Part shown: positions 20,197 through 43,203 of the stretch, piece by piece
Numbering within the stretch: the stretch's first letter is position 1
How the letters are laid out: every line of letters begins with the position of its first letter
Assembly (NCBI GenBank): GCA_963788035.1
Contig: CAWBFC010000004.1
Location: forward strand, 17,752 to 81,751
Length of the DNA: 64,000 bases
Source: an uncultured beta proteobacterium
GTDB taxonomy: Bacteria; Pseudomonadota; Gammaproteobacteria; Burkholderiales; Burkholderiaceae_C
Reading direction: 5' to 3'
Notes under the pieces: model-generated
Seen by the model: the letters and a program-made list of their open reading frames with translations, nothing else
What the model was told of the DNA's origin: nothing
Databases searched by the model: none
Program-made: the position numbers and the translations under genes

Positions 20197-22410
20197 ATGG
20201 CCCTCACCGTGCTGCTCGGCATCGCCGCGCTGCTGTTCCATGCCGCGGCCGCGCGCGCCGCCACGGCGCCCAGCCTGGCGGGCGAACCGCGCCACGCGCT
20301 GGTGATAGGCAACGCCGACTACCTCAGCGCCCCGCTGCTGAACCCCGCCAACGACGCCGCTGCCGTGGCCAAGGTGCTGGAGAAGGCCGGTTTCAAGGTC
20401 GACCTCAAGGTCAACGCCACGCAAAAGCAGATGCAGGAGGCGGTGACCTTGTTTGGCGATCGCCTCAAGGCCGGCGGCGCCGGCTTGTTTTATTTCGCCG
20501 GTCACGGCGTGCAGATCAAGGGCCGCAACTTCATGCTGCCCGTGGGCAGCACCATCGCCCGCGAAGACGAGGTGCCCTACAAGGCCGTCGACGTGCAGCA
20601 GGTGCTGGACAAGATGGACACGGCCAAGAACCGCATCAACATGGTGGTGCTCGACGCCTGCCGCGACAACCCTTTTGCAAAGCAGACACGCAGCACCGGC
20701 GGTGGCGGCCTGTCTCAGGTGGATGCGCCCATCGGCTCCCTGATCGCCTTTGCCACGGCGCCCGGCAGCGTGGCCAGCGACGGCCGCAATGCGAACGGCC
20801 TGTACACACAGCACCTGCTGGCCAACATCGAACGCGCAGGCACGCCCATCGAAGACGTTTTCAAGCGTGTGCGCCTGGGCGTGCGCCTGGACAGCAACGG
20901 CAGCCAGGTACCCTGGGAGAGCACCTCGCTGGAGGGCGATTTCTACTTCTTCCCCGCCGCCCCCGGCACCAAGAGCGGCCCGACCACACTGCCCCCGCCG
21001 CCGGGCATCGAGCAGATGGCGCGCGTGGAGCGCGCCTACGAGCTGCTGCGCCAGGGCCAGATCGACGACGCCGACCGCATCTTCCGCGCACTGGCCGGTG
21101 CCAGCCACGCCGACGTGGCCTGGATGGGCCGCGAAGGCGTGGCCGAGGTGCTGCTGGCGCGCGGCGACAGCAGCGCGGCGCTGGCCGAAGCGAACCAGAT
21201 CATCGCCAAGGCGCCCACGCGCAGCGCGGCCTACCTCATCCGCGGCCGTGCGCTCTCGGCCGCGGGCCAGGCGCAGGATGGCCAAGCCGCGCTGCAGCAG
21301 GCCGCCGGCGCGCAGACCGTGGCCGATTTCGGCTGGCAGAAAGCAGAGGCGCTGGTGGCCGTGGGCAATGTGCAGCGCAAGCACGACCCCAAACTGGCGG
21401 CCAAGACCTACGAGCGTGCCGTGCGCGAGAACCCGCTGTCGGTGGCCGCACTCAGCAACATGGCCGTGGCCCTGAACGACAGCGGCGAAGCCGCCAAGGC
21501 CCGCGCCGTGCTGGAACGGGCGCAGGCGCTCGACCCCACCGATGCCGTGACCATCGCCCTGCTGCGCCAGACGCAGGAAAACCTGGCCGCCGATCAAGAC
21601 CGACAACGCCAGCGCGCCATCGACGAATCGGTGCAGGAGCTGGCCGCGCGTTTCCGCAACCCGGCGCCACGCCCTGCCAACGCAGGCGCGCCCGACGACT
21701 GGACCTCGCCGGCCCTGGCGCTGAGCGTGCTGCCCTTCCAAGACCTCACCCTGCCCGGCAGCACCGGCCGTGTGGGCCTGGAAGCGTTGTTGCAGCAAGA
21801 AGTGATACGCGAACTGCAGGCCCGCGGCTACACGATGGTCGAGCGCCGGCTGCTCGACAAGGTGCTGGCCGAGGTGAAGCTGGGCTCGTCGGAACTGGCC
21901 GACCAGGACACGCAGATCCGCCTGGGCAAGGTGCTGGCGGCGCGGCTGATGATTTCGGGCGCACTCAGCCCGCAAGGCAGCGGGGCCCATCCGGCGGTTG
22001 GCGCCACCGTGCGGGCCATCGACACCGAAACCACGCAGTTGGCGATGGTGAAGGCCGAACGCCCTGCGGCCGGGCCTTTCAACCCGGCCGCGCTGGCCGC
22101 CAGCATCGCGCAGAGCGTGGCCCAGGCCATCGCCGAGAAGTACCCGCTGAAAGGTCGCCTCGTGCAGGTGGACGGCGAGGTGGCCATCATCAACCTCGGC
22201 AAGAAACACGGCGTGGCGCCGGGCCAGCAGTTCAACGTGCTGAGCCAGGGCCAGCCCATCGAGTTGAACGGCCGCGTCCTCGGCTACCGCGAGAGCCGCA
22301 TCGCCCAGATCACCGTCACCGAGGTGCAGGATCTGCTTTCGTTCGGCCGCGTGGCCGGTGTGCAGGCCCCGCTGGCGCAGAACCAGAGAATCATCGCGCG
22401 CAAGGAATGA
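20197..22410 (+). CDS. Secreted caspase (C14) family peptidase with TPR repeats and a C-terminal CsgG/LpoB-like module
   Basis: Signal peptide MALTVLLGIAALLFHAAAARAA (Met-44 of ORF-track 20068). Caspase His/Cys dyad context is LFYFAGHGVQ and MVVLDACRDNPF. TPR-like helices span ~21000-21650. The module LSVLPFQDL...MVERRLLDKVLAEVKLGSSELAD...LGKVLAARLMISG follows. The start is uncertain (20068, 20131 or 20197). Confidence 0.8.
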   Translation: MALTVLLGIAALLFHAAAARAATAPSLAGEPRHALVIGNADYLSAPLLNPANDAAAVAKVLEKAGFKVDLKVNATQKQMQEAVTLFGDRLKAGGAGLFYFAGHGVQIKGRNFMLPVGSTIAREDEVPYKAVDVQQVLDKMDTAKNRINMVVLDACRDNPFAKQTRSTGGGGLSQVDAPIGSLIAFATAPGSVASDGRNANGLYTQHLLANIERAGTPIEDVFKRVRLGVRLDSNGSQVPWESTSLEGDFYFFPAAPGTKSGPTTLPPPPGIEQMARVERAYELLRQGQIDDADRIFRALAGASHADVAWMGREGVAEVLLARGDSSAALAEANQIIAKAPTRSAAYLIRGRALSAAGQAQDGQAALQQAAGAQTVADFGWQKAEALVAVGNVQRKHDPKLAAKTYERAVRENPLSVAALSNMAVALNDSGEAAKARAVLERAQALDPTDAVTIALLRQTQENLAADQDRQRQRAIDESVQELAARFRNPAPRPANAGAPDDWTSPALALSVLPFQDLTLPGSTGRVGLEALLQQEVIRELQARGYTMVERRLLDKVLAEVKLGSSELADQDTQIRLGKVLAARLMISGALSPQGSGAHPAVGATVRAIDTETTQLAMVKAERPAAGPFNPAALAASIAQSVAQAIAEKYPLKGRLVQVDGEVAIINLGKKHGVAPGQQFNVLSQGQPIELNGRVLGYRESRIAQITVTEVQDLLSFGRVAGVQAPLAQNQRIIARKE

Positions 22411-23156
22411 AGACGCTCCGCACGCCGCCCGCCCCGTTCGCATCCTTCGCCCTGCGACGTGCCCGGGTGGGCTGCATGCTGGCTGGCGTGCTGGCCGCGG
22501 TGGTGCTGGCGCCTCCGGCCCGGGCCCAGGCCGATGCGCTGCCGGCGGTGGTGGTGTGGGACTACGAAAACCAGAGCGCCCTGGCTGCGCCGCCTGCCGA
22601 GCAGACCGGATACCTCAAACGCGCGCTGTCCGAAAGCCTCACCGCTACCTTGCTGCAGGTGGCCGGCCTGCCGGTGGTGGAGCGCCAGCGCCTGAAAGAC
22701 TTGCTGGCCGAACAGAAGCTCGGCAGTTCGGCCCTGGCGGACGATGAGGCGCGCCTGCGGCTGGGCAAGATCGTCGGCGCCCAGCGCATGGTCTTCGGCG
22801 GCTTCTTCGTGCTGGGCGAGCAGGTGCAGGTGCATGTGCGCGTGGTCGATACCGCCACCTCGCGCGTGTTGTTTTCCGACGAAGCCGTGGCACCGCTGGC
22901 GGCGGTGATGGCGCAGGTGGGGCCGCTGAACCAGCGCCTGGCGCGCGCGCTGGGCGGGGCCGCGGGGGCCCAGGCCCGCACCGGCAGCCACGGCGCCGCG
23001 CTGTGGCAGGCCTACGACCGCGCCCTGGCCCTGGCCGATGCCGGCAGCTTTGACGACGCCATAGGCGCGCTGCAGCAGTTGTTGGCCGTAGACAAGACTT
23101 TTGTGCCCGCAGAGCGACAACTCGTGGCCCTGCTGGAACGCGCGGCAAGACGGTAA
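22407..23156 (+). CDS. Periplasmic CsgG/LpoB-like module protein with a short TPR-like tail
   Basis: Signal peptide CMLAGVLAAVVLAPPARAQA. Contains VVVWDYENQS...LPVVERQRLKDLLAEQKLGSSALADDEARLRLGKIVGAQRMVFGGF, paralogous to the caspase protein's C-terminal module. Its ATG overlaps the previous stop (ATGA 22407-22410). Confidence 0.6.
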   Translation: MKTLRTPPAPFASFALRRARVGCMLAGVLAAVVLAPPARAQADALPAVVVWDYENQSALAAPPAEQTGYLKRALSESLTATLLQVAGLPVVERQRLKDLLAEQKLGSSALADDEARLRLGKIVGAQRMVFGGFFVLGEQVQVHVRVVDTATSRVLFSDEAVAPLAAVMAQVGPLNQRLARALGGAAGAQARTGSHGAALWQAYDRALALADAGSFDDAIGALQQLLAVDKTFVPAERQLVALLERAARR

Positions 23157-23235: not shown

Positions 23236-24981
23236 ATGCACAGGACGACGATGCCACCCACCTTCTTCCGGCGCCAGCCTCTGCAACGGCCGCCGATGCG
23301 CCTCCGGCCCGCGTGTCTGGCGCTTGCCGCCGCCGTGGCACTGCCCGCCTGGGCCCAGAGCCCGCCCGATGCGGGGCGTCTGCTCGAACAGACCCGCCCA
23401 CCGGCCCTGCCGACGCTGCCGCCGGCCGCGCCGCCGCGCGTGGTCGACCTGCCGGTACGCCCCACCCTGACGCTGCCCGAGGGCGCCACCGTGCAGGCCC
23501 GCAGTTTCCGCGTCAGCGGCGCCCGCTCCTACCCGGCCGAGATGCTGGCCGAGATGCTCAAGCCCTGGCTGGGACGCCAGCTCGACCTGAACGGCCTGAA
23601 TGAAGCTGCCGGCGCCCTCACCCGCCACTACCAGCGCAACGGCCACCTGCTGAGTTATGCCTACATCCCGGCCCAGCGCGTTGCCGACGGGGTGATCGAG
23701 ATCGCGGTGCTGGAAGGCCAACTCGAGGCCGTGCAGATCGTCACCGCACAAGACGTGCGCCTGCGCGACGAGGTCATCCAGGCCCACACCGACCGCCTGG
23801 CCACACGCGCCGAAGCGCCGCAGCCGGTTCTGCTGGCCGACGTCGAGCGTCAGATGTTGCTGCTCAATGACATCGCGGGTGTCACCGCCCGCGCGGCCTT
23901 CACGCCCGGCGCACGCACGGGCGGCGCCGACATGGTGGTGTCGGTGGCCGAAGACGAACCCCTGGGGCTGCGCGTGACCGTCGACAACCACGGCACCCGT
24001 TCCACGGGCGAGTTGCGCGCCGGCGTCGGCCTGCAGCTGCGTGACCTGTTCGGCTGGGGCGACCAGACCGACGCCCGCGCCATGGTCTCGCACAAGGGCG
24101 GACTGGTCAGCGGCTCGCTGGGCACCCTGGTGCCCGTCGGCGGTGACGGCCTGCGCCTGGGCGCGAGCCTGTCGCGCCTGAGCTACCAGCTGGCCGGCAG
24201 TTTCAGCGAACTGGGTGCGACCGGCCATGCCAACACCTTCGGCGTGGAACTCAGCTACCCGCTCATCCGCTCGACCGACACCAACCTCGGCCTGCGCGTG
24301 GCCGGCGAAATGAAGCAGCTGCGCGACGAAGTGCAGCTGGTCGGCCGCAGCGTGCCCAAGCGCAACGACACGCTGGAAGCCACGCTCAGTTTCGACCGCC
24401 GCGACGGCTGGGGCGGCGTGTCGGCCGGCCGCGTGACGGCCGCGATGGGATCACTGCGCCTGCTCGACGACAACCAGCGCGGGGCCGACGCCACCGGCCT
24501 GAAAACAGCGCGCGGGTACAGCAAGCTGGGCTTCCAGCTGCTGCGGCAGCAGGCTTTGAGCGGCCCCTTCAGCCTGGCGCTGCGCCTGGCCGGGCAGGCC
24601 AGCGGCGGCAATCTCGACAGCTCCGAAAAATTCAGCCTGGCAGGCCCGGGCGCCGTGCGTGCCTACGCGCCCGGCGAAGCCTCGGTGGACCAGGGTGCGC
24701 TGCTCAGTCTGGAGGCGCGCTACGCCTTGGCCTACCTTGGGGGCGGCGTCACCTGGGGCCTGTTCCACGACCGTGCCGAAGGCCGCATCAACCGCCAGCC
24801 GACACCGCTGCTGGTGGCCGGCAACGAAGTGCGCCTGTCGGGCACCGGGTTCACGGTGCAGTGGCAGGGTGCCGATCTCGGCCTCAGCGCCTCGATTGCC
24901 TGGCGCGGCACACGCACCCCGACGGCCGAAGGCGCCGACCCCAAACCCCGCGTTTACCTGCAAGTCGTGCTGTCGCCATGA
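23236..24981 (+). CDS. TpsB (ShlB/FhaC/HecB family) two-partner-secretion outer-membrane transporter
   Basis: Signal peptide RPACLALAAAVALPAWAQ. POTRA region is FRVSGARSYPAEMLAEMLKPWLGRQLDLNGLNEAAGALTRHYQRNGHLLSYAYIPAQRVADGVIEIAVLEG. A long beta-barrel follows, ending YLQVVLSP. Start candidates are 23188, 23236, 23251 and 23296. Confidence 0.85.
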   Translation: MHRTTMPPTFFRRQPLQRPPMRLRPACLALAAAVALPAWAQSPPDAGRLLEQTRPPALPTLPPAAPPRVVDLPVRPTLTLPEGATVQARSFRVSGARSYPAEMLAEMLKPWLGRQLDLNGLNEAAGALTRHYQRNGHLLSYAYIPAQRVADGVIEIAVLEGQLEAVQIVTAQDVRLRDEVIQAHTDRLATRAEAPQPVLLADVERQMLLLNDIAGVTARAAFTPGARTGGADMVVSVAEDEPLGLRVTVDNHGTRSTGELRAGVGLQLRDLFGWGDQTDARAMVSHKGGLVSGSLGTLVPVGGDGLRLGASLSRLSYQLAGSFSELGATGHANTFGVELSYPLIRSTDTNLGLRVAGEMKQLRDEVQLVGRSVPKRNDTLEATLSFDRRDGWGGVSAGRVTAAMGSLRLLDDNQRGADATGLKTARGYSKLGFQLLRQQALSGPFSLALRLAGQASGGNLDSSEKFSLAGPGAVRAYAPGEASVDQGALLSLEARYALAYLGGGVTWGLFHDRAEGRINRQPTPLLVAGNEVRLSGTGFTVQWQGADLGLSASIAWRGTRTPTAEGADPKPRVYLQVVLSP

Positions 24982-27900
24982 CGCGCCTCGGCGCCGCCCC
25001 CCTGACGCCCGCCGCTCGGAGCCCTGCCATGCCCACCCGCCCCGCCCTCGCCGCCCCCTCCTCCCAGGCCCCCGCTGCGTCGCGGGCTGCGCGCCGCCGC
25101 GCGCCGCGGCTGCGCACCCGCCTGCTGCGACTTTCGCGGCTGCTGGCCTGGCTGCTGGCGGCCTGGGCCGGCCCCGGCACGCTGGCGCTGGCGCAGGTGG
25201 CCCCCGGCAGCCTGCCGGGCGGTGCTCAGGTGGTGGTGGGCAGCGGCACGCTGGTACACAGCCCGAACTTGCTGGTGATCCAGCAGAACACCGCCAGGCT
25301 GGGCCTGGACTGGCAGAGCTTCAACATCGGCAGCGGTGCCACGGTCGAGTTCCGCCAGCCCAGCGCCAGCTCGGTGGCCCTGAACCGCGTGCTGGGCCAC
25401 AGCGGCACAGAGATCTATGGCCAGCTGCGCGCCAATGGCCAGGTCTTCCTGAGCAACCCCAACGGCGTGCTCTTTGCGCCCGGCGCGCGTGTCGACGTCG
25501 GTGGCCTGGTGGCCAGCACGCTCGACCTGACCCAGCAAGACTTCGCTGCCGGCCGCTACGTGTTCACCGCCACCACCGCCGGCGCGCCGGGCAGCACGGT
25601 GCGCAACCAGGGCCAGCTGAATGCCAGCACCGGCGGCTATCTCGCGCTCTTTGGCCAGCAGGTGGTGAACGAAGGCGGCATGCAGGTCGACGCCGGCGCG
25701 GTGGTGCTGGCCTCCGGACGGGCGGCCACGGTCAGCATCAGCGGCAGCGGGCTGGTCTCGGCGGCCGTCACGCCCGGCCTGCTGGCCGGCCAGGTCGACA
25801 ACGCCGGGCGTATCAGCTCCGACGGCGGCGTGGTCACGCTGAGCGCGAAGTCGGCGCAGGACGTCGCGGCATCGCTCGTCAACAACACCGGCATCGTGCG
25901 CGCCAACACCCTGGTGGAGCGGGCTGGTGAAATCTGGATCACCGGCGACCACGTGGCCAGCAGCGGCACGCTGGTGGCTGCGGCGCCGGCTGGCGGTGAT
26001 GCCGGCCGCATCAGCGTGAAGGGGGGCATGGCCGAGGGCCGCCTCGCGATGGCCGGGCGGGTGGACGTCAGCGCCGCGGCAGGCCGCGGCGGCCAGGTCG
26101 AAACCTCGGCCGCGCAGGTCGGCATCGCCCGCGACACGCGCGTGGACAGCCGCGGCGGCACCGCCACCGGCTCGTGGCTCATCGACCCCACCGACCTCAC
26201 CATCGCCGCCGGCAGCGGCGCGCAGACCGCCTCGGGCATCGGCGCCGACACGTTGGCAGGCAACCTGGGCACCACCAACGTCACGCTGGCCACGGCCAGC
26301 ACCGGCAGCGAAGCCGGCGACATCCACGTCAATGCCGATGTCGCCTGGAGCAGCAACAACAGCCTCACGCTGCAGGCCAGCCGCGACGTCAACCTCAACG
26401 CCAGCCTGATTGCCACCGGCGCCAGCGCCGGGCTCGTGCTCAGCCCGGGCACGGGCGGGGCGCTGCGCATCAACACCACCGACACGCTCAGCCCCAAGGT
26501 CACGCTGAGCGGCGCCAACGCCACGTTGAGCATCGCCAACCAGGCCTACACGCTGGTGCGCGACGTGGCCGGCCTGCAGGCCATGCAAAGCGGTCTGGCC
26601 GGGCGCTACGCACTGGCCGTCGACCTCGACGCCAGCAGCACCGCCACCAACGGCTTCACGCCCATCGGCAACGAAGCCGCCACCAGCGTCACGACGACCA
26701 ACGCCTTCACCGGCACCTTCGAAGGCCTGGGCCACAGCATCAGCGGCCTGACAATCAACCGCAGCGGCAGCAGCGCGAATGCCGTGGGCCTGTTCGCCAC
26801 CACCAACAACGCCACGCTGCGCAACGTGCAGCTGGTGGGCGGCGCCGTCAGCGGGCGGCTCTTCGTGGGCGCCGTGGCCGGCTACACCAACGGCAGCACC
26901 ACGCTCACCAACGTGCGCAGCAGCGCCACGGTGGCGGCCACCACCACCGACGGCAACACCGTGCGCGTGGGCGGCCTGGTCGGGCTGATGGGGGGCAGCA
27001 ACGGCGCTGCCGGCGTCAGCGACAGCGTGGCCACGGGCGCGGTCAGCGCCAGCGTGGCCAACAGCACGACCGTCAACGCCGGTGGCTTGGTGGGCGAGGT
27101 CGATGTCGGCAGCCTCAGCCGTGTGCGCAGCACGGGTGCGGTGACAGCCGGCCTCTCGGCCGGCACCAACGACAGCGGCATCACCGCCGGCGGCTTGGTG
27201 GGCCGCCACAGCGGCGGCGCGATCAGCGTTGCCACCGCCACCGGCAACGTCAGCGGGGGCCGCTACGTCGGCGGCCTGGTGGGCTACCTCGACGCCGGCA
27301 GCGTCACCGGGGCACGCGCCGAAGGCCAGGTTTCGGCCAACGGCGACGCCGGCGGGCTGTTCGGCTTGGCCACGGGAACGGGTTCCCTGGCCGATGTGGC
27401 AGCGCTGGGCCCCGTGAGCTCTTCGCTCAGCAACTACAGCGTCGGCGGTGCCGTGGGCTACCTGGCCATGACAGGTTCGCTCACCGGCATCACCGCGGCG
27501 GGCAACGTCAGCGGCGGCATCTACACGGGCGGCGTGATCGGCTACTACAACCCGGCCACCGCCGTCTCGGCCGCCACGGTGGGCAGCGTGAACCACGCCA
27601 GCAAAACCATCACCGGCGGTTCCTGGGTGGGCGGCTTCATCGGCTACATGAACCAGGCCGCGGCGCTCAGCGGGCTCAGCGCCTCGTCCACGGTCGTCGC
27701 CACGGGCACGGGGGGCGCCGTGGGCGGCGTCGTCGGGCGCAGCAGCGGTGCGGTGTCGGGCAGTTCGGCAGGCGGCAGCGCCAGCGGCCCGGGCACGGTA
27801 GGCGGCCTCGTGGGCGTTGCCTCGGGTGCGGGCGGCATGAGCACATCGAGCGCCAGCACCACCGTCACCGGCACCGGCACGGGCGGTGAAGTGGGCGGGC

Positions 27901-36900: not shown

Positions 36901-39128
36901 GCCGCATTTACGACGGCAGCACCGCGGTCAGCGTCAGCGGCAGTTCCACCGACATCCGTGGCGATGACGTGCTCACGCTGGCCGCCAGCGGCCAGTTCAG
37001 CGGTGAAGGCGCGCGCAACGTCGGCAGCGGCAAGAGCCTGAGCTTCAGCAACGGCGTGCTCAGCGGCACCGACGCGCAGAACTACCAGCTCACCAACCCC
37101 AGCGGCACGGCCACGGCCGACGTCACGCCGCGCACCTTGACCCCCAGCTACAGCGGCGGCACGCGCGTCTACGACGGCACGGTCGGCGCGCCAGTCAGCG
37201 CCACGCTGGCCGGGCTGGTGGCCGGCGATGCGGTGGCCACCGCCCAGAACGCGGTGTTCACCGGTGCCGGCGCGAAAAACGCCGGCACCGACAAGGCGGT
37301 GCAGGTCAGCGCGGTCACGCTGCTGGGCAGCGATGCCGGCAACTACGTGCTGGCCGGCGACAGCGCCAGCACCACGGCCACCGTCACGCCGCGGCCGCTG
37401 AACGTCAGCGGCTTGACGGGCCTGCAGGCGGTGGACCGTGTCTACGACGGCACGCGCGCGGTGCAGATCACCGGCACGCTGGTGGTGGGCAGCACCTCGG
37501 GCGATGTGATCGCCGGCGACGAGATCAGCCTCAACCTGCCCGGCGGCGACGTCAACACCGGCACGCTGGTCGACAAGAACGCCGGCACCGGCAAATCGGT
37601 GGCCCTCAGTGGCCTCACGCTGGGCGGCGCCGACGCCATCAACTACCAGATCACCGGCACGGCCGGCCTCACCGTCAACATCGCGCCGCGGCCGGTGGCG
37701 CTGCTGGGCGTGAGCGCGCTGAACCGCGTTTACGACGGCAGCAACACCGTGGTGCTGGACACCAGCGCCGGCAGCCTGGCGGGCGCGCTGCCCGGCGACA
37801 ACCTGCAGTTGCTGGGCAGCGGCGTCACCGGCACCACCGCGGACAAGGCCGCGGGCACCGGCAAGGCCGTCAGCCTCTCAGGTGCGGGCTTCGGCCTGGG
37901 CGGCAGCGACGCCGCCAACTACAGCCTGCAAGCCAGCGGTCTGACGGTGGACATCAGCCCGCGCAGCCTCGTCGTCACCGCGACGGGCGTGGACAAGGTC
38001 TACGACGGCAGCAGCGGCGCGCAAGTGGTCTTCGCCAGCGACGTGCTGGCGGGCGATCAGCTCACCATCGCCGCAGCCAACAGCAGCTTCGCCAGCGCCG
38101 ATGCCGGCACCGGACTGGCCATCACCGTCAGCGGCCTCACCGTCGGCGGCCGCGACGCCGGCAACTACCTGCTGGCCACGCCCACGCTGAGCACGGGCGC
38201 CACCATCGAGCGCAAGGCCGCCACGCTCACCGCCGGCAACCTCGACAAACTCTACGGCGATCTGCGGGGCCTGCCGGGCTCGGCCTTCAGCACCTCGGGC
38301 CTGGTGGTGGGCGAAAGCCTGGGCAGCGTGACGCTCGTCAGCGCTGGCGCCGACTCTGGCGCGAACGCTGGCAATTACCTCATCCATGCCAGCGGTGCCA
38401 GCGGCGGCAACGCCAAGCTCGGCAACTACCTGCTCACCTACGTGCCCGGCACGCTGGAAGTCAAGCCACGCCCGCTGACCCTGGCGGCCAACAGCGTGGT
38501 GCGCTTCGACGACGGGCGCAACCCCGAGAGCTTCAACTTCAGCGCCAGTGTCGGCAGCCTCGTCAACCTCGACCGCATCGGCGCCGTGACCGTCACCGCC
38601 CCAGACGCCAGCATCGGTGCCAAGGGTGTTTCGGTCTTCACGCTGCAGACCTCGGACGCGCAGTTCAGCAACGGCAGCGCCAGCAACTACGCCATCAGCT
38701 ACGGCAGCGGCCTGCTGCTCGTGCTGCCCGCGCCGCCGCGTGTGGACGATGCCAACACCGGCGGCGAAGGCCCGCAAGGTCTGGCCGTGGTGGCCGACCC
38801 CGTGGCCGTGGCGGCGGCCGAAAAAACGCTCGCCCAGTTGGCCGCCTTCCTGACGGCGCCGCGTAATGATGCTGAGGCCGGCACCGGCACCGGTGATGGC
38901 ACCGCCCGGGCTGCCCGCAGCACCGACGGCCCCACGGCGGCGCTCACGCCGCAAGCCTCGGCGGCGGCCGCCGCCGCCCTGGCCGCGCTGCTCTCGGGCG
39001 ACGCCACGCGCGTGAACCTGCCCGAGTTGCAGCGACTGCCGCTGCTGAGCTTCGAGCCGGCGCTGCGCCGCCTGCTGGCCGGTGCGGCCAGCTTTCGCAA
39101 CCCACCGGCGGCGCCGCCCCCGCCCTGA
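24978..39128 (+). CDS. Giant TpsA exoprotein (filamentous-haemagglutinin-like), 4716 aa: TPS domain + GLUG-like region + ~26 YDG modules + MBG-like modules
   Basis: Start ATG 24978 overlaps the tpsB stop (ATGA). The TPS domain reads LDWQSFNIGSGATVEFRQPSASSVALNRVLG...GQVFLSNPNGVLFAPGARVDVGGLVAST. The rest is described under the repeat features. ORF-track start 24861 lies inside tpsB. Confidence 0.9.
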   Translation: MTRLGAAPLTPAARSPAMPTRPALAAPSSQAPAASRAARRRAPRLRTRLLRLSRLLAWLLAAWAGPGTLALAQVAPGSLPGGAQVVVGSGTLVHSPNLLVIQQNTARLGLDWQSFNIGSGATVEFRQPSASSVALNRVLGHSGTEIYGQLRANGQVFLSNPNGVLFAPGARVDVGGLVASTLDLTQQDFAAGRYVFTATTAGAPGSTVRNQGQLNASTGGYLALFGQQVVNEGGMQVDAGAVVLASGRAATVSISGSGLVSAAVTPGLLAGQVDNAGRISSDGGVVTLSAKSAQDVAASLVNNTGIVRANTLVERAGEIWITGDHVASSGTLVAAAPAGGDAGRISVKGGMAEGRLAMAGRVDVSAAAGRGGQVETSAAQVGIARDTRVDSRGGTATGSWLIDPTDLTIAAGSGAQTASGIGADTLAGNLGTTNVTLATASTGSEAGDIHVNADVAWSSNNSLTLQASRDVNLNASLIATGASAGLVLSPGTGGALRINTTDTLSPKVTLSGANATLSIANQAYTLVRDVAGLQAMQSGLAGRYALAVDLDASSTATNGFTPIGNEAATSVTTTNAFTGTFEGLGHSISGLTINRSGSSANAVGLFATTNNATLRNVQLVGGAVSGRLFVGAVAGYTNGSTTLTNVRSSATVAATTTDGNTVRVGGLVGLMGGSNGAAGVSDSVATGAVSASVANSTTVNAGGLVGEVDVGSLSRVRSTGAVTAGLSAGTNDSGITAGGLVGRHSGGAISVATATGNVSGGRYVGGLVGYLDAGSVTGARAEGQVSANGDAGGLFGLATGTGSLADVAALGPVSSSLSNYSVGGAVGYLAMTGSLTGITAAGNVSGGIYTGGVIGYYNPATAVSAATVGSVNHASKTITGGSWVGGFIGYMNQAAALSGLSASSTVVATGTGGAVGGVVGRSSGAVSGSSAGGSASGPGTVGGLVGVASGAGGMSTSSASTTVTGTGTGGEVGGLVGRYNNSGNLDGGSASGAVQGGTGGAAVAGGLVGTFDSSASLVNGSTATTSTVSGAGDTGGLVGQAFGSGTAAVTGATVRGTVTGGTTGSLGGLAGEFSMPGGWSGVTVEGAVSGGTYAGGLVGYYSSSAAITSGSYTPAAVSGVSFAGGIVGYMATTAAISGPSSASPWVITTQVTATGTSGAAGGLAGRTAGSVANIRTTGSVASGDDAGGVIGRADGAGTLTQLHATGSVSTSNTASSVGGVVGLLSSSGAFNNATGGGTVSGGRYGGGVIGYFSGSATLQTLRGEGAVNSAGDAGGVLGFASGSGSISDADGLGTVTSSDTASYSVGGAIGYFNLSGGLSDITAAGNVNGGAHTGGVIGYHATASALTSTSLSYTNSASRTVTGAYWVGGLIGYSNASSITGLGSAAAVAVSGTSASAAAGGLAGRTAGAVSSSSASGNVTSPGRAGGLVGQAEGNHSFTDTIATGAVSGLSAAGGLIGYVSSNTTLLRAGASGTVFTRDAGGGLVGQHNGGAITDSNASGSVTGLSDSTVYLGGLVGQYGSGCYYCTPGAGFTITNSHATGSVRADASGIYAGGLVGYVYSGVLNNVSASGSVTAVDAVSSSSNEMIGGLVGYFGNYNQSGSISGSNASGAVSGGYYSGGLVGYYIGGAISNSGATGSVTGGIETGGLIGYANLYGPMQDVSASGAVTAALNTSTYTRVGGLVGRMYFYTADNVTGGALTNGSASGAVTAPTDSGEIGGLIGFLGAYNAEAGPVNDSRATGKVTGGNLSGGLIGYFDNGSGHSALLNSTASGAVSGGTYSGGLVGYYQRSAATGRADDITNSSASGDVTGSYFAGGLVGYFDGRHGIVGSHATGQVIGNNAVNDKFLGGLVGYFYARHTSSSNLADIHASYATGAVSLAPGSTLGTFADVYAGGLVGYLAGQSAGAAVVDAYATGAVTVAASSGRFYAGGLVAYASAGQNVLRGYASGAVSATGGNTRSTGGLLAGRSATTSTVSDSHWDSSTTGQASSLGGGTARSTAEMRQASSFSGWDLNTAGTGGTVWRLYEGHTAPLLSRFLTPRTITLADASKVYDGTLSFGNASLAAANGTIDYANRIFVSTPSADAGSYAIAAAGVYSVQNGYDLTVSGSATLSVTPRPITLAGVVADKVYDGTRTAALLSTAQPSGVVAGETLTVNTTGASAVFDTRNAGANKAVTITGLSLSDGATGKASNYLLASTSSSTASITPAPLNVGGFTATSRAYDGSVTVAVSATGGSVSGVIGSDDVAANVAGVTNGTVADKNVGTAKLVTVLGATLTGADAGNYTIAGLDAVTVAITPRTLTVNGLRGNNRQYNQSTAVSVSTATGELSGVVPGDVLQLRSTSITGTMADRHAGIGKTVAVSGSSLQLRGVDAANYAVSSATATVDIARATVSLGADYYGSTNDKVYDGTDAATMVTPYGYSSTTGYILPGSSTFGLDNVALSFDTPRYADKNVSYSGTSVTSKTITVSNAALSGTEAGNYVLSTTSATTSGRITPRPLSVTGVNPVNRAYDGTVNVSVNVASAAVDTTQLVPGDSVTVSVPGSGTVLGTMANKNAGTGKAVAVPGFGLSGGDAGNYTLSGNAGVTVDIARKELTASYTAIDKVYDGNAYAAVSVSSADIVAGDVVRFYADQTYCTTCGYAYFVTSASPLLDPVLSKDAGTNKPVLVTDNGLFSTDAANYTLLNPTATLSASITPKGITPVFSGVSKVYDGSTTATVNLNTSASGIFSGDAVSLTRTATFDNKNAGTGKTVTITDIAFTGAAAANYTLSTTSASTTAAITRKTLAVAGVTATDRSYDGSTSVALVQGTLGATGVVAGDLVSVSAPGGGLGAGSIAIKGVGNAKAVTVAGLTLGGADAGNYSLDGSLGVTVNITPRPLTAVYTGISREYNGGVSAAVSVASPDAVAGDVLSYTQNAIYTGLDARNAGINKPIAVTSIVLGGTDAANYSLVNTTASTTGTITAKGITVTYTGLARTYNGLADTSARVEGASTGLVAGDQIGFAQTAVFTSDGAVGSGKAVSVSGITLTGPQITNYSVLNSTATTTASITPRLLGVTGVLATGRVYDGTVNVQLSTAGATVLPSGVLAGDTVSVVLPAGGITSGTMATKDAGTNKPVTITGLTLTGASASNYAVGGEGLTVNITPRPLTATYTAADRVYNGGTGATITGSSSDILTVDIGALAIVASGSFSDGKNVGDGKAVAVTGGFLSGAERNNYTLVNASGNTTASITPRTLTATYTGGTRVYDGGVAAPVTASNAGVLAGDLLGFTQSAVFTGAGAKNVGTGKAIAVSDIVLTGADAMNYRLLDTTASTTGSVTRKAISIDGITGATATPRVYDGSTTVAVVVASNGSIAPSSADIVDGDTVTISLPEGGITTGTMANKNAGSGKAVAVDGLTLGGADAGNYVVAATTGITVDIAKKALNAVYTGVNRVYDGSTAATATATSADIIGGDAVLIGGGGVFTGDGARNVGSGKAVSVLSGALSGADAGNYALLNPTGSTTASITPRPVTPGYTGLDKVYDGNTSALVQASGSGFIAGDAVQLSQTAVFTGNKNVGADKAIAVSAIALQGSDAANYSLTATAATATGSITPKPLRIDGLTGVSATDRAYDGEITVAVVVSASGPIAPNPQDLVAGDVVTVTAPATGNTTGTVADKNVGSNKPVAVAGLNLGGADAGNYSITATSGVTVNITPRLLTAVYTATTREYDGSTAAAITGSSGDIVAGDALSITGTGAYTGTGARNAGTGKVAEVLSIGLTGADAGNYSLLNPTGSATGTVTPRALVVSYSGGSRVYDGTTAAPVVGSAERFIAGDDARLTQTAVFTGAGAKNVGSGKAVAISDIALVGSDAANYTLNIGSASTAASVTPRPLRIDGFTGVVATDRVYDGSTAVAITVQGSGTLGANTVDLVMGDDVGVLPPPSGSNAGLLADKNAGTNKPVTVVGVTLSGADAGNYSVAAATGVTVNITPRPLTAVWTGLSRIYDGSTAVSVSGSSTDIRGDDVLTLAASGQFSGEGARNVGSGKSLSFSNGVLSGTDAQNYQLTNPSGTATADVTPRTLTPSYSGGTRVYDGTVGAPVSATLAGLVAGDAVATAQNAVFTGAGAKNAGTDKAVQVSAVTLLGSDAGNYVLAGDSASTTATVTPRPLNVSGLTGLQAVDRVYDGTRAVQITGTLVVGSTSGDVIAGDEISLNLPGGDVNTGTLVDKNAGTGKSVALSGLTLGGADAINYQITGTAGLTVNIAPRPVALLGVSALNRVYDGSNTVVLDTSAGSLAGALPGDNLQLLGSGVTGTTADKAAGTGKAVSLSGAGFGLGGSDAANYSLQASGLTVDISPRSLVVTATGVDKVYDGSSGAQVVFASDVLAGDQLTIAAANSSFASADAGTGLAITVSGLTVGGRDAGNYLLATPTLSTGATIERKAATLTAGNLDKLYGDLRGLPGSAFSTSGLVVGESLGSVTLVSAGADSGANAGNYLIHASGASGGNAKLGNYLLTYVPGTLEVKPRPLTLAANSVVRFDDGRNPESFNFSASVGSLVNLDRIGAVTVTAPDASIGAKGVSVFTLQTSDAQFSNGSASNYAISYGSGLLLVLPAPPRVDDANTGGEGPQGLAVVADPVAVAAAEKTLAQLAAFLTAPRNDAEAGTGTGDGTARAARSTDGPTAALTPQASAAAAAALAALLSGDATRVNLPELQRLPLLSFEPALRRLLAGAASFRNPPAAPPPP
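26690..30900 (+). repeat. In-frame GGLVG/GGLIG (GLUG-motif-like) degenerate repeat region of tpsA
   Basis: Dozens of G-G-[LV]-[VI]-G-[YRQ] cores are spaced roughly 20-35 aa apart (AGGLVGRHSGG, VGGLVGYLDAG, TGGVIGYYNP, and others). The region closes with the WD...GQASSLGGGTARSTAEMRQASSFSGWDL...VWRLYEGHTAPLL segment that usually terminates such regions. Confidence 0.7.
31090..38200 (+). repeat. Tandem array of ~26 YDG-type modules (~90-100 aa each) with a ~820-bp (three-module) super-repeat
   Basis: The recurring block is [RK]-x-Y-[DN]-G...NAG-x-[GN]-K-x-V...G-x-DA-x-NY-x-L...[IV]TPR-x-L. Antisense 'MPASAPPSV...' shadow ORFs recur with right-hand ends at 33550, 34357, 35179, 35998, 36823 and 37642. 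That spacing (807-825 bp) reveals the higher-order period. Confidence 0.85.
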
Positions 39129-39137
39129 AGGCCCGCC

Positions 39138-40553
39138 ATGCGTTTGTCCGCACCCCCTGTCTTGCCACGGCCACCCACGATGACACCCCACCGTTCCACC
39201 CCCCGGCCCGCCTTTGCCCGGCTGCAGGCCACCGCCAGCCTGCGGCGTCTCGTGCTGGCCGGCCTGCTGCCGCTGCTGCAAGCGTGGCCCATGGGCGCCA
39301 GCGCAGCGCCGCTGGACGACATGCGCCGGCAGGTGGAAGCCGGCCAGTTCGAGCAGGCCTACAGCACGGCGCAGGGCCAGCCGCAGCTGATGGGCGATGT
39401 GCATTTCGACTTTCTCTTCGGCGTGGCCGCCGTCAACACGGGCCGCATCCCCGAGGGTCTGCTCGCGCTGGAACGCCACCTGGCGGCCGTGCCGGCCAAC
39501 GACCGCGCGCGGCTCGAGCTGGCGCGCGGCTACTTCCTGCTCGGTGAATACACGCGGGCGCGCAGCGAGTTCGAGTTCGTGCTGCGCTACAACCCGCCGG
39601 CGGGCGTGCGCGCCAATATCAACGGCTTCCTGCAGGCCATGCAATCGCGCGAGGCGGCCGACCGCCGCGCCAGCGCGCGCCTGTACGCCGAGGTCGGCCT
39701 GGGCCACGACAACAACGTCAACGGCGGCACCTTCCGCGATGAACTGCAGCTGGTCTTCGGCACCATCAGCCTTGCAGGCAGCCCGTCGCGGCAGGTGGCC
39801 GACAGCTATGGGCAGGTGGCCGTGGGCGGGCAGCACCAGACCCGCGTGACGCCGCGGCTGTCGGTGTTCGCCGGGGCCGACCTCGACCACCGTGGCAACG
39901 CCGACGAAACCGCCTACAACCTCACCAACGCGGGCGTGTACGTGGGCTTCACGCAGCTCAGCGCCGGCGCGCTGTGGCGGCTGACGCTGGGCAGCAGCAC
40001 GCTGCAGGTGGGCGGCAACCGCTACCGCAGCACCACGCAGCTCGGGCTGGAAAGCAACCGCTCGCTGGCGGCCGATCTGTCGATGCTGGGTTTTGCCCAG
40101 TACGCCGAGTTCCGCCACGCCGAGGCCGACCGCGTGCGCGACGCCCGCGCCACCACGCTGGGCGTGATGTTCACCCAGGGCTACCCGAACCTGCCCGGGG
40201 CGCCTTCGGTGGGCCTGCGGCTGAGCTGGACGCACGAAGACAACCAGCGCCTGCGTGCCGACCTCGACCGTCACGTGCCGCTGGTGCGCGTCTTCGGCGC
40301 GATGACGCCGATGCCGGGCCTGCGCCTGAGCGTCGGGCTCACCGCCTACCGCCAGATCTTCGGCGGTACCGATCTCGGCTTCGGCACCGACCGCAAGGAC
40401 AGCGCCCTCGCCGGCGACCTGGTGGCCAGCTACGCGCTGGACGAACGCTGGTCGCTGCGCGGCGACGCCGTGTGGTCGCGCAACCGCTCGAACCAGGATC
40501 TCTACGACAGCAGCCGCAAGGCGGTGTCGCTGAAGCTCCGCTACCAGTACTGA
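39138..40553 (+). CDS. TPR + DUF560-type outer-membrane beta-barrel (Slam / type XI secretion-like)
   Basis: The N-terminal TPR reads DRARLELARGYFLLGEYTRARSEFEFVLRYNPPAGVRANINGFLQAMQSRE. The barrel onset is ARLYAEVGLGHDNNVNGG, followed by alternating-polarity strands to the terminal SLKLRYQY. It starts 10 nt after the tpsA stop. Confidence 0.65.
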   Translation: MRLSAPPVLPRPPTMTPHRSTPRPAFARLQATASLRRLVLAGLLPLLQAWPMGASAAPLDDMRRQVEAGQFEQAYSTAQGQPQLMGDVHFDFLFGVAAVNTGRIPEGLLALERHLAAVPANDRARLELARGYFLLGEYTRARSEFEFVLRYNPPAGVRANINGFLQAMQSREAADRRASARLYAEVGLGHDNNVNGGTFRDELQLVFGTISLAGSPSRQVADSYGQVAVGGQHQTRVTPRLSVFAGADLDHRGNADETAYNLTNAGVYVGFTQLSAGALWRLTLGSSTLQVGGNRYRSTTQLGLESNRSLAADLSMLGFAQYAEFRHAEADRVRDARATTLGVMFTQGYPNLPGAPSVGLRLSWTHEDNQRLRADLDRHVPLVRVFGAMTPMPGLRLSVGLTAYRQIFGGTDLGFGTDRKDSALAGDLVASYALDERWSLRGDAVWSRNRSNQDLYDSSRKAVSLKLRYQY

Positions 40554-40561
40554 GGACCGCG

Positions 40562-41779
40562 ATGAACCGCTTCCAGACGATCCGAAGCCGGGCCCGCGGC
40601 TGCGCCCTGCTGCTCGCCCCGCTGTGCCTGCCGACGGCCGCCTGGGCCCAAGCGCCCGCTGCCCCGCCAGCGGCAACCGCGCCGGCAGAGGTGCTGCTGG
40701 TGCAGGCCCAAGGCGACGTGCGCATCAATGGCACGCCCGCGCGCAAGGGCGTGCTGCCCGCCAGCGCCCTGGTGCAGACCGGCGTCGACGGCCGTGTGCA
40801 ACTGCGCACCACGGCGGGCGCGCTCATCGCGCTGCCCGCCGGCAGCGAGATACGCCTGGCAGAGGCCGGCAACACCGTGGCGCTCAACGCTGGTGGCCTG
40901 CGCCTGAGCACCGGCAGCGCCGAGTGGCGCGTGACCCTGCCCGAACGCAGCATCCGCACGCGCGGTTATCTGAAGCTGCAGGCCTGCGGCGCCGGCTGCG
41001 CGCTGCCGCCGGGGATGTACGGTCGCATCGCCCAGGGCGAAGCGGTGCTCGAGTACCAGGGCGGGCGTTCGGTGCTGCGCAGCCGCGACTTCCGCTGGGC
41101 CGATGCCGCCAGCCGCCCCGAGCTGCTGGCCAGCGCGCCGGCCCTGCTGGACGACAGCAGCAACCAGGCCGAGGCCACCCGCGTGCGTGCCGAGGTGGCG
41201 GCCACGCTGCAGGCCGGCATCGCGGCTTTCCGCGACGGCCAGGATGCTGCGGCCTCGCAGGCCTTCGAACGCGTGCGCGCGCTCGCCCCTGGCGAAACCC
41301 TGGTGCCCTATTACCTGGGCCTGCTGGCCCTGAAACGCGCCGACAACGCCGCCGCGGTGCAGCTGCTGCAGCAGTACGCCCGCGAAGACCCCGAGGGCGC
41401 CACCGCGCGCGAAGTGCCACAGACGCTGACGCTGCTGTCCAGCGTGCAGCTGCAGCAGGAGGTGGCCAGCGCCGTGGCGCGCGAGGCCGAGGTGGTGGGC
41501 TCGCCGCCTGAGCCCGGCAGCATTGCCGTGCAGGCCTTCGTCAACAAGGGCGACGCCAACTTCCGCGCCATGGCCAAGGGCCTCGCCGCGATGATCATCG
41601 CCGACCTCAGCAAGGTGCCCGGCCTGAAGGTGCTGGAACGCGAGAAGGTGCAGCTGCTGGTCAACGAAGCCAAGCTCGGCGACAGCGGCCTGGCCGACAC
41701 CGCGTCGGCGGTGCGCTCGGGGCGGCTGATGCGCGCTGAAAAAGTGGTGGTGGGCAATTTCGAGGTGCAACAACCATGA
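40562..41779 (+). CDS. FecR-domain / TPR / CsgG-LpoB-like module periplasmic protein
   Basis: ORF-track 39974..41779 trimmed to ATG 40562 (MNRFQTIRSRARGCALLLAPLCLPTAAWAQ). FecR-like segment is VLLVQAQGDVRINGTPARKGVLPASALVQTGVDGRVQLRTTAGALIALPAGSEIRL. The C-terminal module is SIAVQAFVNKGD...LKVLEREKVQLLVNEAKLGDSGLAD...LMRAEKVVVGNF. Confidence 0.65.
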   Translation: MNRFQTIRSRARGCALLLAPLCLPTAAWAQAPAAPPAATAPAEVLLVQAQGDVRINGTPARKGVLPASALVQTGVDGRVQLRTTAGALIALPAGSEIRLAEAGNTVALNAGGLRLSTGSAEWRVTLPERSIRTRGYLKLQACGAGCALPPGMYGRIAQGEAVLEYQGGRSVLRSRDFRWADAASRPELLASAPALLDDSSNQAEATRVRAEVAATLQAGIAAFRDGQDAAASQAFERVRALAPGETLVPYYLGLLALKRADNAAAVQLLQQYAREDPEGATAREVPQTLTLLSSVQLQQEVASAVAREAEVVGSPPEPGSIAVQAFVNKGDANFRAMAKGLAAMIIADLSKVPGLKVLEREKVQLLVNEAKLGDSGLADTASAVRSGRLMRAEKVVVGNFEVQQP

Positions 41780-43203
41780 AGACCGTGCAGACCCACATCG
41801 CTGCGGCAGCCGCTGTGCTGGCCCTGGGCGCGCTCGGCGTGCCGCAAGCAAAGGCGCAGGCGCCGGCGCCGGCCCCCGCCCCGTCAACCAGCCCGGCGGC
41901 CGTGGCCCTGCCCGCGGGCTTTTCGCTCGAAGGTGCCGTCATCGACAGCCGCAGCGCGCGCAGCCTTGGCGTGGTCAGCGAGCGGGGTGACATCAACGCT
42001 CTCTTTCGCGCCCAGAAGGCCATGACCTTCGGCATCCTGCGCGCGGCCGGCATCCCGCTGGACCAGCTCTCGCCCGAGGTGCGGGCGCGCATCGAACGTT
42101 TCGCCACCACCAACCTGGAGGCCTTCCGCGCCTTCTCGCAGGGGCTGGACCTGAAAGACCAGGGCCGGTATGCCGAGGCCAAAGTCGAGTTCGCGCGCGC
42201 CGCGCAGCTCGACCCCGGTTTTGCGCTGGCCAGCGAACAGCAGCAGGCCATGCCCGAGGTGAGCCTGGGCAGCGGTGTGCAGACCCGAGCCGTGCTGCTG
42301 GCCGCCGCCGGTGCCGCGGTGGACCGTGGCCGCGCGGCCTTTGCCGTGGACACCGCGCGCGCCGTGGCGGCCCTGGCCGCCGGGCAGACGGTGGTGACGG
42401 TGCCGCTGGCCAGCACCGCCGAGCAGGCACGCACCAGCGACTTCAGCACCACGCCGCCGGGCTCGGGCACGCAGTTCGTGCCCAATATCGTGGCCGGCAT
42501 CGCCTACACCGCGGTGCTGCCGGGTCTGGGCACGGCCCAGCTTTCAACGCTGAGCGAGTGGCGCTCCGACAGTTTCCGCGTCGGCACCGGCGCCAGCGGC
42601 ACCGTGCTGGAGGCGCTGGGCAGCGTCACCAACCCGGTGGCGCAGATCGGTGGGGCCAGCGCGCAGCCGCTGGACCAGGCCACGCTGGCCGATGGCAGCG
42701 TGGCCTACTGGGGCGCCTGGGTCTCGGCCCCCGGTGCCAGCGCCACGGTCACCGTCGGCGGTACGCCGCTCGTGGCGCCGCAGTTGGGTACCGTGAACTA
42801 CCTGCTGGCCGATGCCACGCGCACCATGCCCGGCACCGGCACCGCCGTGTTCACGCCTCGTGGCGGCACCCTGGCCAACGCCACTGGCACGGTGGCAGTG
42901 AACTTCGCCACGCGCGCCGTGGAGCTGCGCAACCTGGGCTTCGACATCGGCACGCTGAACTTCAGCGGCCTCAACGGCAACGCCACTTTCGATGCGCGCA
43001 TCGCCTCGGGCGGCTTCGGCGGCAACTACAGCGGCGGGCAGTGCAACGGCTGCAGCGGCTTCACGCCGCTGAGCAGCAGCTTCAGCGGCAACTTCGTCGG
43101 CCGCGATGCCGATGGCATGGCCTTCGCCACCTTCCTGCTCACGGGGGGCGGCGGCACCGCCGCCGGCGTGCACCTCTTCACGCGGCCGCCAGCGCAGCCC
43201 TGA
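41776..43203 (+). CDS. Secreted, non-lipidated protein with a C-terminal TbpB/handle-type 8-strand beta-barrel (Slam-cargo-like)
   Basis: Signal peptide AAAAVLALGALGVPQAKAQ has no lipobox Cys. The C-terminus reads VNYLLADATRTMPGTGTAVFTPRGGTLANATGTVAVNFATRAVELRNLGFDIGTLNFSGLNGNATFDARIASGGFGGNY...FSGNFVGRDADGMAFATFLL. This follows the Y-x-G...G-x-a-x-[VL]-x-[VF]-[DN]-F...G-x-F-x-G...G-x-F-[FV]-G pattern of TbpB-like barrels. Its ATG overlaps the previous stop (ATGA 41776-41779). Confidence 0.55.
   Translation: MKTVQTHIAAAAAVLALGALGVPQAKAQAPAPAPAPSTSPAAVALPAGFSLEGAVIDSRSARSLGVVSERGDINALFRAQKAMTFGILRAAGIPLDQLSPEVRARIERFATTNLEAFRAFSQGLDLKDQGRYAEAKVEFARAAQLDPGFALASEQQQAMPEVSLGSGVQTRAVLLAAAGAAVDRGRAAFAVDTARAVAALAAGQTVVTVPLASTAEQARTSDFSTTPPGSGTQFVPNIVAGIAYTAVLPGLGTAQLSTLSEWRSDSFRVGTGASGTVLEALGSVTNPVAQIGGASAQPLDQATLADGSVAYWGAWVSAPGASATVTVGGTPLVAPQLGTVNYLLADATRTMPGTGTAVFTPRGGTLANATGTVAVNFATRAVELRNLGFDIGTLNFSGLNGNATFDARIASGGFGGNYSGGQCNGCSGFTPLSSSFSGNFVGRDADGMAFATFLLTGGGGTAAGVHLFTRPPAQP

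Follow-up and report, generated by a model that had tools for sequence, protein, structure and literature searches.

The locus considered here, at positions 20197-43203 of a 64-kb window (the whole stretch of betaproteobacterial DNA that was analysed), raises the question of why genes for two outer-membrane export routes and for an exported caspase stand in one row, and whether their products would work together. Its seven genes, here g1 to g7, encode in order a caspase, a small CsgG-like protein, the TpsB and TpsA proteins of a two-partner secretion (TPS, type Vb) pair, a Slam-like barrel of the type XI secretion system (T11SS) kind, and two proteins with FecR-type and TbpB-like parts. The sequence points to a vertically inherited, co-conserved envelope operon of three modules: the TPS pair (g3 and g4), the Slam-like barrel with its cargo (g5 to g7), and the caspase with its small partner (g1 and g2). 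All the parts are of known kinds; what is new is the combination, the class of FecR-type cargo, and the division of this cargo between two genes.

Regarding conservation, a scan with a g5 profile of one genome per species gave 66 loci, whose neighbouring genes were sought by tblastn with the window proteins. Wherever the contig reaches these genes, the order TpsA (YDG type), g5, g6, g7 occurs in 47 of the 47 species-level loci with g5 at least 43% identical; all four were detected in 42 of them, and the other five miss the TpsA or g7 segment at contig ends. The 47 loci come from Rubrivivax, Comamonadaceae, Rhodoferax and Thiobacillus metagenome-assembled genomes (MAGs), plus one low-GC gammaproteobacterial MAG, and homolog searches with g5, g7 and g1 gave families of similar breadth in Rubrivivax-type genomes, many of the matches lying on contigs that agree in length. 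The full set occupies the same position, between smpB and metC, on JGI contig Ga0436429_0002 (L004 and L001) and in Rubrivivax sp. A210 (L073 and L035); the metC flank is kept in 27 of the genome-scan loci and in L001, and the other loci lie elsewhere in the genome. Mapping of this kind had been proposed in an earlier interpretation made from the DNA alone, here the sequence-only reading, which had named absence of co-conservation as counting against it; the set was found to be co-conserved.

As for the caspase, in L043, L044, L046, L048 and L049 it is found directly downstream of g7, on either strand and with its CsgG-like tail kept, and a g2-like gene beside the relocated caspase was confirmed in L044, L048 and L049. 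Because the caspase is relocated rather than lost in these five loci, its gene stays with the cluster when the order changes; for the g2-like gene, this holds in three of the five or more.

The seven genes all lie on the plus strand, as had been described, and their packing is operon-like, with three 4-nt overlaps and gaps of 8-9 nt. The sequence itself shows the ATGA overlaps, which stand at 22407, 24978 and 41776, and the remaining gaps are 79-139 nt between g2 and g3, 9 nt between g4 and g5, and 8 nt between g5 and g6; the earlier estimate was roughly 10 to 140 nt, the largest depending on the tpsB start. N-terminal Sec-type signal sequences, judged by eye, are present on 7 of 7 products, in line with the earlier statement that every product carries a signal peptide or is an outer-membrane protein.

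The Slam-like barrel and its predicted cargo

The AlphaFold2 model of g5 (39138-40553), built with 47 homologs, has a predicted local distance difference test (pLDDT) score of 88.8, and in it the helices of a TPR domain (aa 58-175) are followed by a barrel region with 14 long strands (aa 178-470). A g5-family profile, run against 1.84 billion representatives of 50% identity clusters, retrieved 3570 proteins at E ≤ 1e-3 and reached P0500, P0504 and P0508 over their full length at ~1e-55; these three pass the Pfam model PF04575 (SlipAM) with 38.9, 29.4 and 37.4 bits, respectively (cutoff 22), and BLASTP gave 31% identity between g5 and P0500 over 440 aa (E 2e-38). Homology to proteins that pass PF04575 places g5 in a divergent branch of the Slam/T11SS outer-membrane superfamily, and the prediction is that it sits in the outer membrane as a protein of the Slam/T11SS type, its TPR domain facing the periplasm and its barrel having 14 strands.

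Among PDB sequences the g5-family profile had 0 matches, and Foldseek with the g5 model returned generic barrels from the PDB, the best superpositions being with OmpG and CymA, of 14 strands, followed by the TPR-barrel exporters BcsC and PelBC; none of the 50 PDB matches listed is described as Slam. The place of BcsC and PelBC among the top matches, together with the CsgG/TolB-N-like fold of PelC-type rings, would fit a reading in which g5 and a ring of CsgG-like proteins form a PelB/PelC- or BcsC-like channel for the export of a polymer, and not of a protein. Such a channel is highly improbable: the g5 barrel is modelled with 14 strands and is thus smaller than the barrels of solved BcsC- and PelB-type channels; by sequence, g5 is homologous to PF04575 proteins; the cluster contains no glycosyltransferase or polymerase genes; and a cargo-type gene adjoins g5 in every lineage examined. 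The name MtrB/PioB porin, which NCBI PGAP gives to the g5 homolog P0011, was rejected in view of the 14-strand, SlipAM-related barrel.

Downstream of the barrel, g6 (40562-41779) and g7 (41776-43203) had been taken for two separate accessory proteins; instead, they appear to be the N-terminal and C-terminal halves of one ancestral FecR-type Slam cargo. The former starts with a signal peptide and a FecR-type domain (~aa 15-198), continues with TPR (~aa 209-292) and ends in a CsgG-like module of which it holds the first half (aa 320-405). In the latter, a separate signal peptide (aa 1-28) precedes the other half of this module (aa 47-92), and TPR (aa 100-158) leads on to a C-terminal handle with a beta-barrel (aa 238-469). 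The g6 C-terminus breaks off in the middle of the module (...AEKVVVGNFEVQQP, followed by the stop), and the mature N-terminus of g7 continues it (GFSLEGAVIDSRS...); the two align as a single module with aa 505-660 of g1 and aa 35-180 of g2, so that this CsgG-like module is common to g1, g2 and g6+g7. The split module spans 41519-42051, with the g6 stop and the g7 start at the ATGA at 41776.

The two halves are also found joined: in L001 they are fused into one protein of 843 aa, with an Ala/Pro linker in place of the g7 signal peptide, and P0179 (818 aa) is a second fusion. These fusions, together with the split domain, tie g6 to g7 in a Rosetta-stone manner. The split was surveyed in 48 loci bearing g6 and g7, namely the 47 from the genome scan and L001; in 42 of them the same split point was confirmed, the g6 stop and g7 start being offset by -4, -1 or +1 nt and g7 bearing a signal peptide, only L001 is fused, and in the remaining five the automated search did not locate the g7 start. 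A CsgG-like domain divided over two exported chains implies that the g6 and g7 chains would reassemble after separate export.

Regarding the FecR-type domain, the earlier label of g6 as a FecR-TPR protein is probably right by homology, its direct Pfam match to FecR (0.0039, 18 bits) being under the cutoff of 24: residues 15-198 match the FecR-domain proteins beside distant g5 homologs (BLASTP 6.7e-11), and those of L054 and L059, the two scanned, pass Pfam FecR at ~40 bits. The CsgG match of g6 is at 1.2e-7. FecR anti-sigma factors probably share with g6 the periplasmic fold family PF04773, weak in g6 and significant in its distant relatives, but g6 has neither a cytoplasmic anti-sigma domain nor a transmembrane helix, carrying a cleavable-type signal peptide instead, and no ECF (extracytoplasmic function) sigma factor or TonB-dependent transducer was found among the flanking genes examined; an anti-sigma role was rejected on the lack of the anti-sigma domain and of a nearby ECF sigma factor.

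As for g7, its C-terminal domain (aa 238-469) is modelled by AlphaFold2 with pLDDT >90, the strand count from DSSP being approximate, and in a Foldseek search of the PDB 50 of the 50 top matches were Slam/T11SS cargo (HphA, TbpB, hemophilin, fHbp and LbpB), with E values of 1e-6 to 1e-4, a probability of 1.00 and template modelling (TM) scores, on the target, of 0.4-0.5. The feature looked for in such cargo is a C-terminal handle followed by a barrel of 8 strands, of the TbpB_B_D type; g7 resembles it by fold, and by sequence it has no Pfam match. The gene inventory of the sequence-only reading, with its Slam-like barrel and TbpB-barrel protein, is borne out, both labels having been reached through structure prediction and intermediate homologs only.

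The origin of the barrel and cargo can be traced in the most distant g5 relatives, which are 33-37% identical and come from Sulfuricella, Nitrosomonadales and Burkholderiales MAGs. In these the barrel gene is directly followed by one gene for a protein of 500-680 aa, with a signal peptide, an N-terminal FecR domain, a Pro-rich linker and a C-terminal beta-rich region; this last region weakly matches the g7 C-terminus, with which it shares the motifs WG.W, VNF..R and C..GC. The same FecR-cargo gene follows the bona fide PF04575 proteins P0500 and P0508. From its presence in the distant relatives and after P0500 and P0508, the two-gene SlipAM and FecR-cargo module can be taken as the ancestral unit; barrel and cargo form an autonomous module that was recruited into the window cluster, and in the lineage of the window the cargo appears to have acquired TPR and CsgG-like inserts and to have come to be encoded as two genes. 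This two-gene SlipAM/Slam-like and FecR-cargo module is widespread in Betaproteobacteria (L054-L068, L075, L076).

Compared with described Slam/T11SS pairs (Neisseria Slam1-TbpB/fHbp, Xenorhabdus NilB-NilC and HrpB-HrpC, and HphA), g5 has the same N-terminal TPR domain and 14-strand barrel and is homologous to PF04575 proteins, and the adjoining gene encodes a C-terminal handle and barrel domain that matches cargo by fold; a cargo without a lipid anchor has counterparts in HrpC and hemophilin. Cargo is expected beside its outer-membrane protein, and g5, g6 and g7 are contiguous in all loci with g5 at least 43% identical whose contig reaches g6 and g7. The differences are that g5 and g7 lie below the Pfam DUF560 and TbpB_B_D models; that the N-terminal part of the window cargo is a FecR-type domain with TPR and CsgG-like inserts; that this cargo is divided into two polypeptides; that the pair has no TonB or TonB-dependent receptor context; and that it sits inside a TPS/caspase operon of free-living freshwater bacteria.

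The type Vb fibre, the caspase and the CsgG-like module

In the TPS pair, TpsB (g3, ~23236-24981, with the start uncertain among 23188, 23236, 23251 and 23296) exceeds the Pfam cutoffs for POTRA_2, with 59.1 bits against 24, and for ShlB, with 74.5 bits against 22.7. TpsA (g4, 24978-39128) is a protein of 4716 aa with the NCBIfam TPS domain TIGR01901 at aa 111-184 (1.9e-22, 78.9 bits, cutoff 29.1), an NPNG motif at aa 160, and 25 YDG domains by Pfam. By its architecture this is a canonical type Vb TpsB/TpsA pair as far as the sequence can tell, and the exported fibre most likely serves in adhesion or as part of a matrix, and not as a toxin. Pfam and NCBIfam show no toxin domain in g4. Contact-dependent inhibition was rejected, given a TpsA C-terminus free of any toxin domain and a gap of 9 nt to g5, which leaves no immunity gene.

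Alignment of 16 TpsA tails revealed that the conserved motif LPELQRLPLLSFEPALRRLL (39018-39077) lies at the extreme C-terminus of the protein, past a variable Ala/Pro-rich linker; the consensus is L..LQRLPL.SFDP.LRRL. It is kept in most of the 16 tails and is degenerate in the Comamonadaceae-/Thiobacillus-type tails of L043, L049, L050 and L051. The motif is a candidate recognition site, and it might be a TPR-binding or retention signal.

A protein from a short contig, P0492 (L074:2889-6377), is a TpsB of 1162 aa with POTRA_2 and ShlB, and it carries at its N-terminus three tandem periplasmic TPR domains of the g5 type, 32-37% identical to it (E 2e-20); this fusion joins a Slam-type TPR module to a type Vb transporter.

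The caspase, g1 (20197-22410), matches the Pfam models Peptidase_C14 (8.5e-37, 127.5 bits, cutoff 21.4), TPR, CsgG (3.4e-5) and FlgT_C (1.3e-7), and its caspase domain (aa 32-250) is followed by TPR (~aa 278-450) and by the CsgG-like module with FlgT_C (~aa 505-713). An in-frame ATG at 20131 is an alternative start, which gives the 759-aa form equal to the database protein P0241. The catalytic dyad is formed by the His of AGHG (aa 101-104) and the Cys of DACR (aa 153-156), and both motifs are found in 119 of 120 g1 homologs and also in the rearranged variants; g1 is predicted to be an active exported caspase with an intact His/Cys dyad. Its nearest solved relatives are the MALT1 paracaspases. 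In NCBIfam, g2 and g5 are without a model, g3, g6 and g7 have only weak matches under the threshold, and g1 matches a caspase model only in part.

The small partner, g2 (22407-23156), is an exported CsgG/FlgO-like protein with matches to Pfam CsgG (3.1e-15) and FlgO and one weak C-terminal TPR; it is 42% identical to the module of g1 and 38% to that of g6, and searches of PDB sequences with g2 and with g6 gave nothing useful. The module common to g1, g2 and g6/g7 suggests a shared assembly.

Known members of the CsgG, PelC, FlgO/FlgT and LpoB type form rings or scaffolds beneath the outer membrane. The likeness of g1, g2 and g6+g7 is to the N-terminal half of Pfam CsgG, with FlgT_C in g1 and FlgO in g2 in addition; unlike CsgG, g1, g2 and g6 cover only profile positions ~5-104 of 210 and have no CsgG transmembrane hairpins, and unlike this type of module in general, g1, g2 and g6/g7 have no lipobox (judged by eye) and one copy is split over two genes. 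By their sequences, g1, g2 and g6 are carriers of a CsgG-like module and not CsgG channels.

The tail of g1 sets it apart within its family. In metagenome contigs, g2, TpsB and TpsA come after the full-length g1 homolog in eight of eight cases, as far as the contig extends, whereas relatives of the caspase domain have other neighbours, and thus the TPR/CsgG-like tail is what ties the caspase to the system. The caspase domain itself belongs to a highly conserved bacterial family, 50-65% identical over 220 aa and with the motifs GLFYFAGHG and GVQIKGRN, which is found in many soil and freshwater contigs (metagenome loci L086-L156). Larger caspases, of 947-949 aa, are present in the Comamonadaceae-type variants L048:5834-8677 (-) and L044:4850-7699 (-); a Pfam scan of the former revealed an AhpC/TSA-redoxin domain inserted between the caspase and the TPR region, and in L048 a dCache-PAS-GGDEF-EAL gene comes after the CsgG-like gene.

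With these data, one alternative can be weighed, namely that the TPS adhesin pair, the Slam-like/cargo pair and the caspase pair are independent neighbours that share only regulation or history. It would draw on the autonomy of the Slam-like and FecR-cargo pair elsewhere, on the other contexts that the caspase domain family serves, and on the fact that TPS pairs are normally self-sufficient; yet it is unlikely, as the genes are co-conserved across families, with g5 identity down to 35% and at different genomic locations, the caspase pair relocates together with the cluster, the TPR/CsgG-like tail of g1 was seen only with the cluster in the loci sampled, three proteins of these modules have the CsgG-like module in common, and the genes overlap translationally.

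Proposed joint function and known systems

A joint function of the three modules, of the general kind of fibre export, cargo export and caspase processing, is given about an even chance. In this proposal, TpsB would thread the 4716-aa YDG-repeat fibre out of the cell, and g5 would bring g7, or at a minimum its C-terminal barrel domain, to the cell surface; the split CsgG-like fold would be restored by complementation, which would rejoin g6 with g7. Through their CsgG-like modules and TPRs, g1, g2 and g6/g7 would co-assemble at the periplasmic face of the outer membrane, which would put the caspase beside both pores, where it may cleave TpsA or g6/g7, so that the fibre would be matured, anchored or released. 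Any specific substrate of the caspase is graded well below the joint function itself.

This proposal resembles, by analogy, the maturation of FhaB by SphB1 and CtpA or the release of LapA by LapG. With the Bordetella system (FhaB/FhaC with SphB1, CtpA and DegP) it would share a giant beta-helical fibre exported by a TpsB/TpsA pair and dedicated envelope proteases for maturation and release; in contrast, the window protease has a caspase fold (C14) and is encoded within the operon, its cleavage of the fibre being putative, and the window TpsA, built of YDG repeats, ends in another conserved motif. The Lap system (LapA/LapG/LapD, for type I secreted RTX adhesins) offers a parallel in that a periplasmic cysteine protease, itself held by a partner, determines whether a giant adhesin stays on the surface, and the occasional neighbouring genes for enzymes of cyclic di-GMP (c-di-GMP) add to the likeness; however, the window cluster uses type Vb secretion where LapA uses a type I system, its protease is C14 and not LapG/C93, and it has no LapD-like receptor.

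Several points weigh against the operon of three cooperating modules, and they concern both its parts and their union. PF04575 (DUF560/SlipAM) has no match in g5, and TbpB_B_D none in g7, even at E ≤ 10 in Pfam; g5 has no match in NCBIfam either, g7 is not a lipoprotein, and no TonB-dependent receptor was found among the flanking genes examined. Around the most distant g5 relatives no TPS or caspase was found by tblastn within ~10 kb flanks, and the pair of barrel and cargo, occurring there alone, does not need the other modules; likewise, relatives of the caspase domain at 50-65% identity have different C-termini (e.g., FGE-sulfatase) and unrelated neighbours. Promoter and terminator scans of the cluster stayed at background level, and the operon is a predicted one. 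The physical assembly, the topology and the protease substrate are all putative, the substrate in particular. Finally, the whole cargo, its FecR domain included, might be exported, as its single-chain relatives are one polypeptide; export of the whole cargo would place the CsgG-like module outside the cell and undermine the picture of a periplasmic scaffold.

In another reading, g5 would export only the TbpB-like domain of g7, the N-terminal half-domain of g7 staying in the periplasm, locked to g6. Such a trans-outer-membrane tether or sensor would wire a surface ligand-binding domain to the periplasmic FecR domain, gating the caspase and with it the retention or release of the fibre, as an outside-in analogue of LapD/LapG/LapA. 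In its favour are the split domain and the separate g7 signal peptide, which are kept in nearly every locus examined that bears g6 and g7, the long linkers, rich in Pro, that join FecR domain and barrel in the single-chain relatives, and the module that the caspase tail has in common with g6/g7; FecR domains are periplasmic signalling modules, and in L001, L007, L043 and L048 the cluster has a GGDEF or GGDEF-EAL gene at its side. Nevertheless, a tether is rather unlikely, because known Slam cargo is translocated whole, no ECF sigma factor, anti-sigma domain or kinase was found among the flanking genes examined, GGDEF genes adjoin the cluster only sporadically and not in the window, and the topology itself is conjectural.

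A further reading is decidedly unlikely: g5, g6 and g7 would be a new kind of outer-membrane-spanning device, with a type-XI exporter threading a protein whose surface TbpB-like domain remains covalently linked to a periplasmic half-domain that is completed by the FecR chain, and the reconstituted CsgG-like fold would dock the caspase, so that events at the surface would lead to proteolytic control of the type Vb fibre. If true, two outer-membrane secretion systems would here be coupled in function by a caspase for the first time.

As for the literature, a search for the combination of TPS, Slam-like/FecR-cargo and caspase found no published description, which agrees with the sequence-only reading, to which no described system of this composition was known. 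Two studies of T11SS neighbourhoods, PMC8406197 and PMC12282271, deal with clusters 1 and 3, and in their main texts neither caspase nor CsgG, FecR or hemagglutinin is mentioned; the supplement of PMC12282271 has FecR only beside ECF sigma domains (classic regulation) and Haemagg_act in 3 neighbourhoods only. The survey of prokaryotic caspase homologs PMC3501461 mentions no link to CsgG, FecR or hemagglutinin.

The cluster, on the preferred reading of a joint envelope operon, would widen the range of type XI (Slam) secretion by a large clade of free-living Betaproteobacteria that is still unannotated, with a FecR-type cargo class that is absent from both T11SS surveys (PMC8406197, PMC12282271). 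It would offer a genetically tractable case of two outer-membrane export routes and a bacterial caspase kept together by selection, and a testable substrate context for exported orthocaspases; the naturally split periplasmic domain, with halves exported separately, would be an unusual solution to assembly. Its carriers include cultured isolates (Rubrivivax rivuli, R. albus, Rubrivivax sp. A210 and AAP strains), which makes experiments feasible.

Genomic surroundings

The cluster lies between smpB (19439-19906, identified by translation) and a Cys_Met_Meta_PP gene on the minus strand (43221-44888, Pfam family), a metC-like gene for an enzyme dependent on pyridoxal phosphate, a position that the sequence-only reading had rightly given as core-like and GC-rich. 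The genes upstream are guaA, guaB, a DUF4124-like, an RnfH-like and a RatA-like gene, and smpB; the RnfH-like identity is clearest (Ub-RnfH) in the syntenic loci L004 and L073, where the gene syntenic with smpB carries Pfam SmpB. Downstream, the metC-like gene is accompanied by a MiaB-like radical-SAM gene. The GC fraction is 0.70-0.73 in the cluster and 0.65-0.70 in the flanks, a profile with no island signature, and a mobile island was rejected because the flanks are conserved in Rubrivivax-type genomes (28 loci).

An Rfam scan of 19400-43600 gave zero matches, c-di-GMP riboswitches included, and no tRNA or tmRNA genes are present in the 64-kb window. In other genomes, GGDEF or GGDEF-EAL genes stand beside the cluster at L001:14007-15875 (-), L007 ~14470-14982 and L043 ~19497-21155, besides the L048 gene already described; they are sporadic and none is in the window, and c-di-GMP control may be hinted at.

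Further away, beside guaA, a tyrosine-recombinase-type integrase gene (13111-14562, -) and an open reading frame of 324 aa (12029-13003) lie in DNA of lower GC (0.62); the region 12029-14562 probably marks the border of an integrated element that has nothing to do with the operon. A gene for an AcrB/RND (resistance-nodulation-division) efflux pump is located downstream at 47716-50934 (-), with a Pfam ACR_tran match at 1e-247, and it is unrelated to the cluster. The nearest matches to the window proteins are from Rubrivivax rivuli and the AAP65/AAP121 strains, with 93-95% identity.

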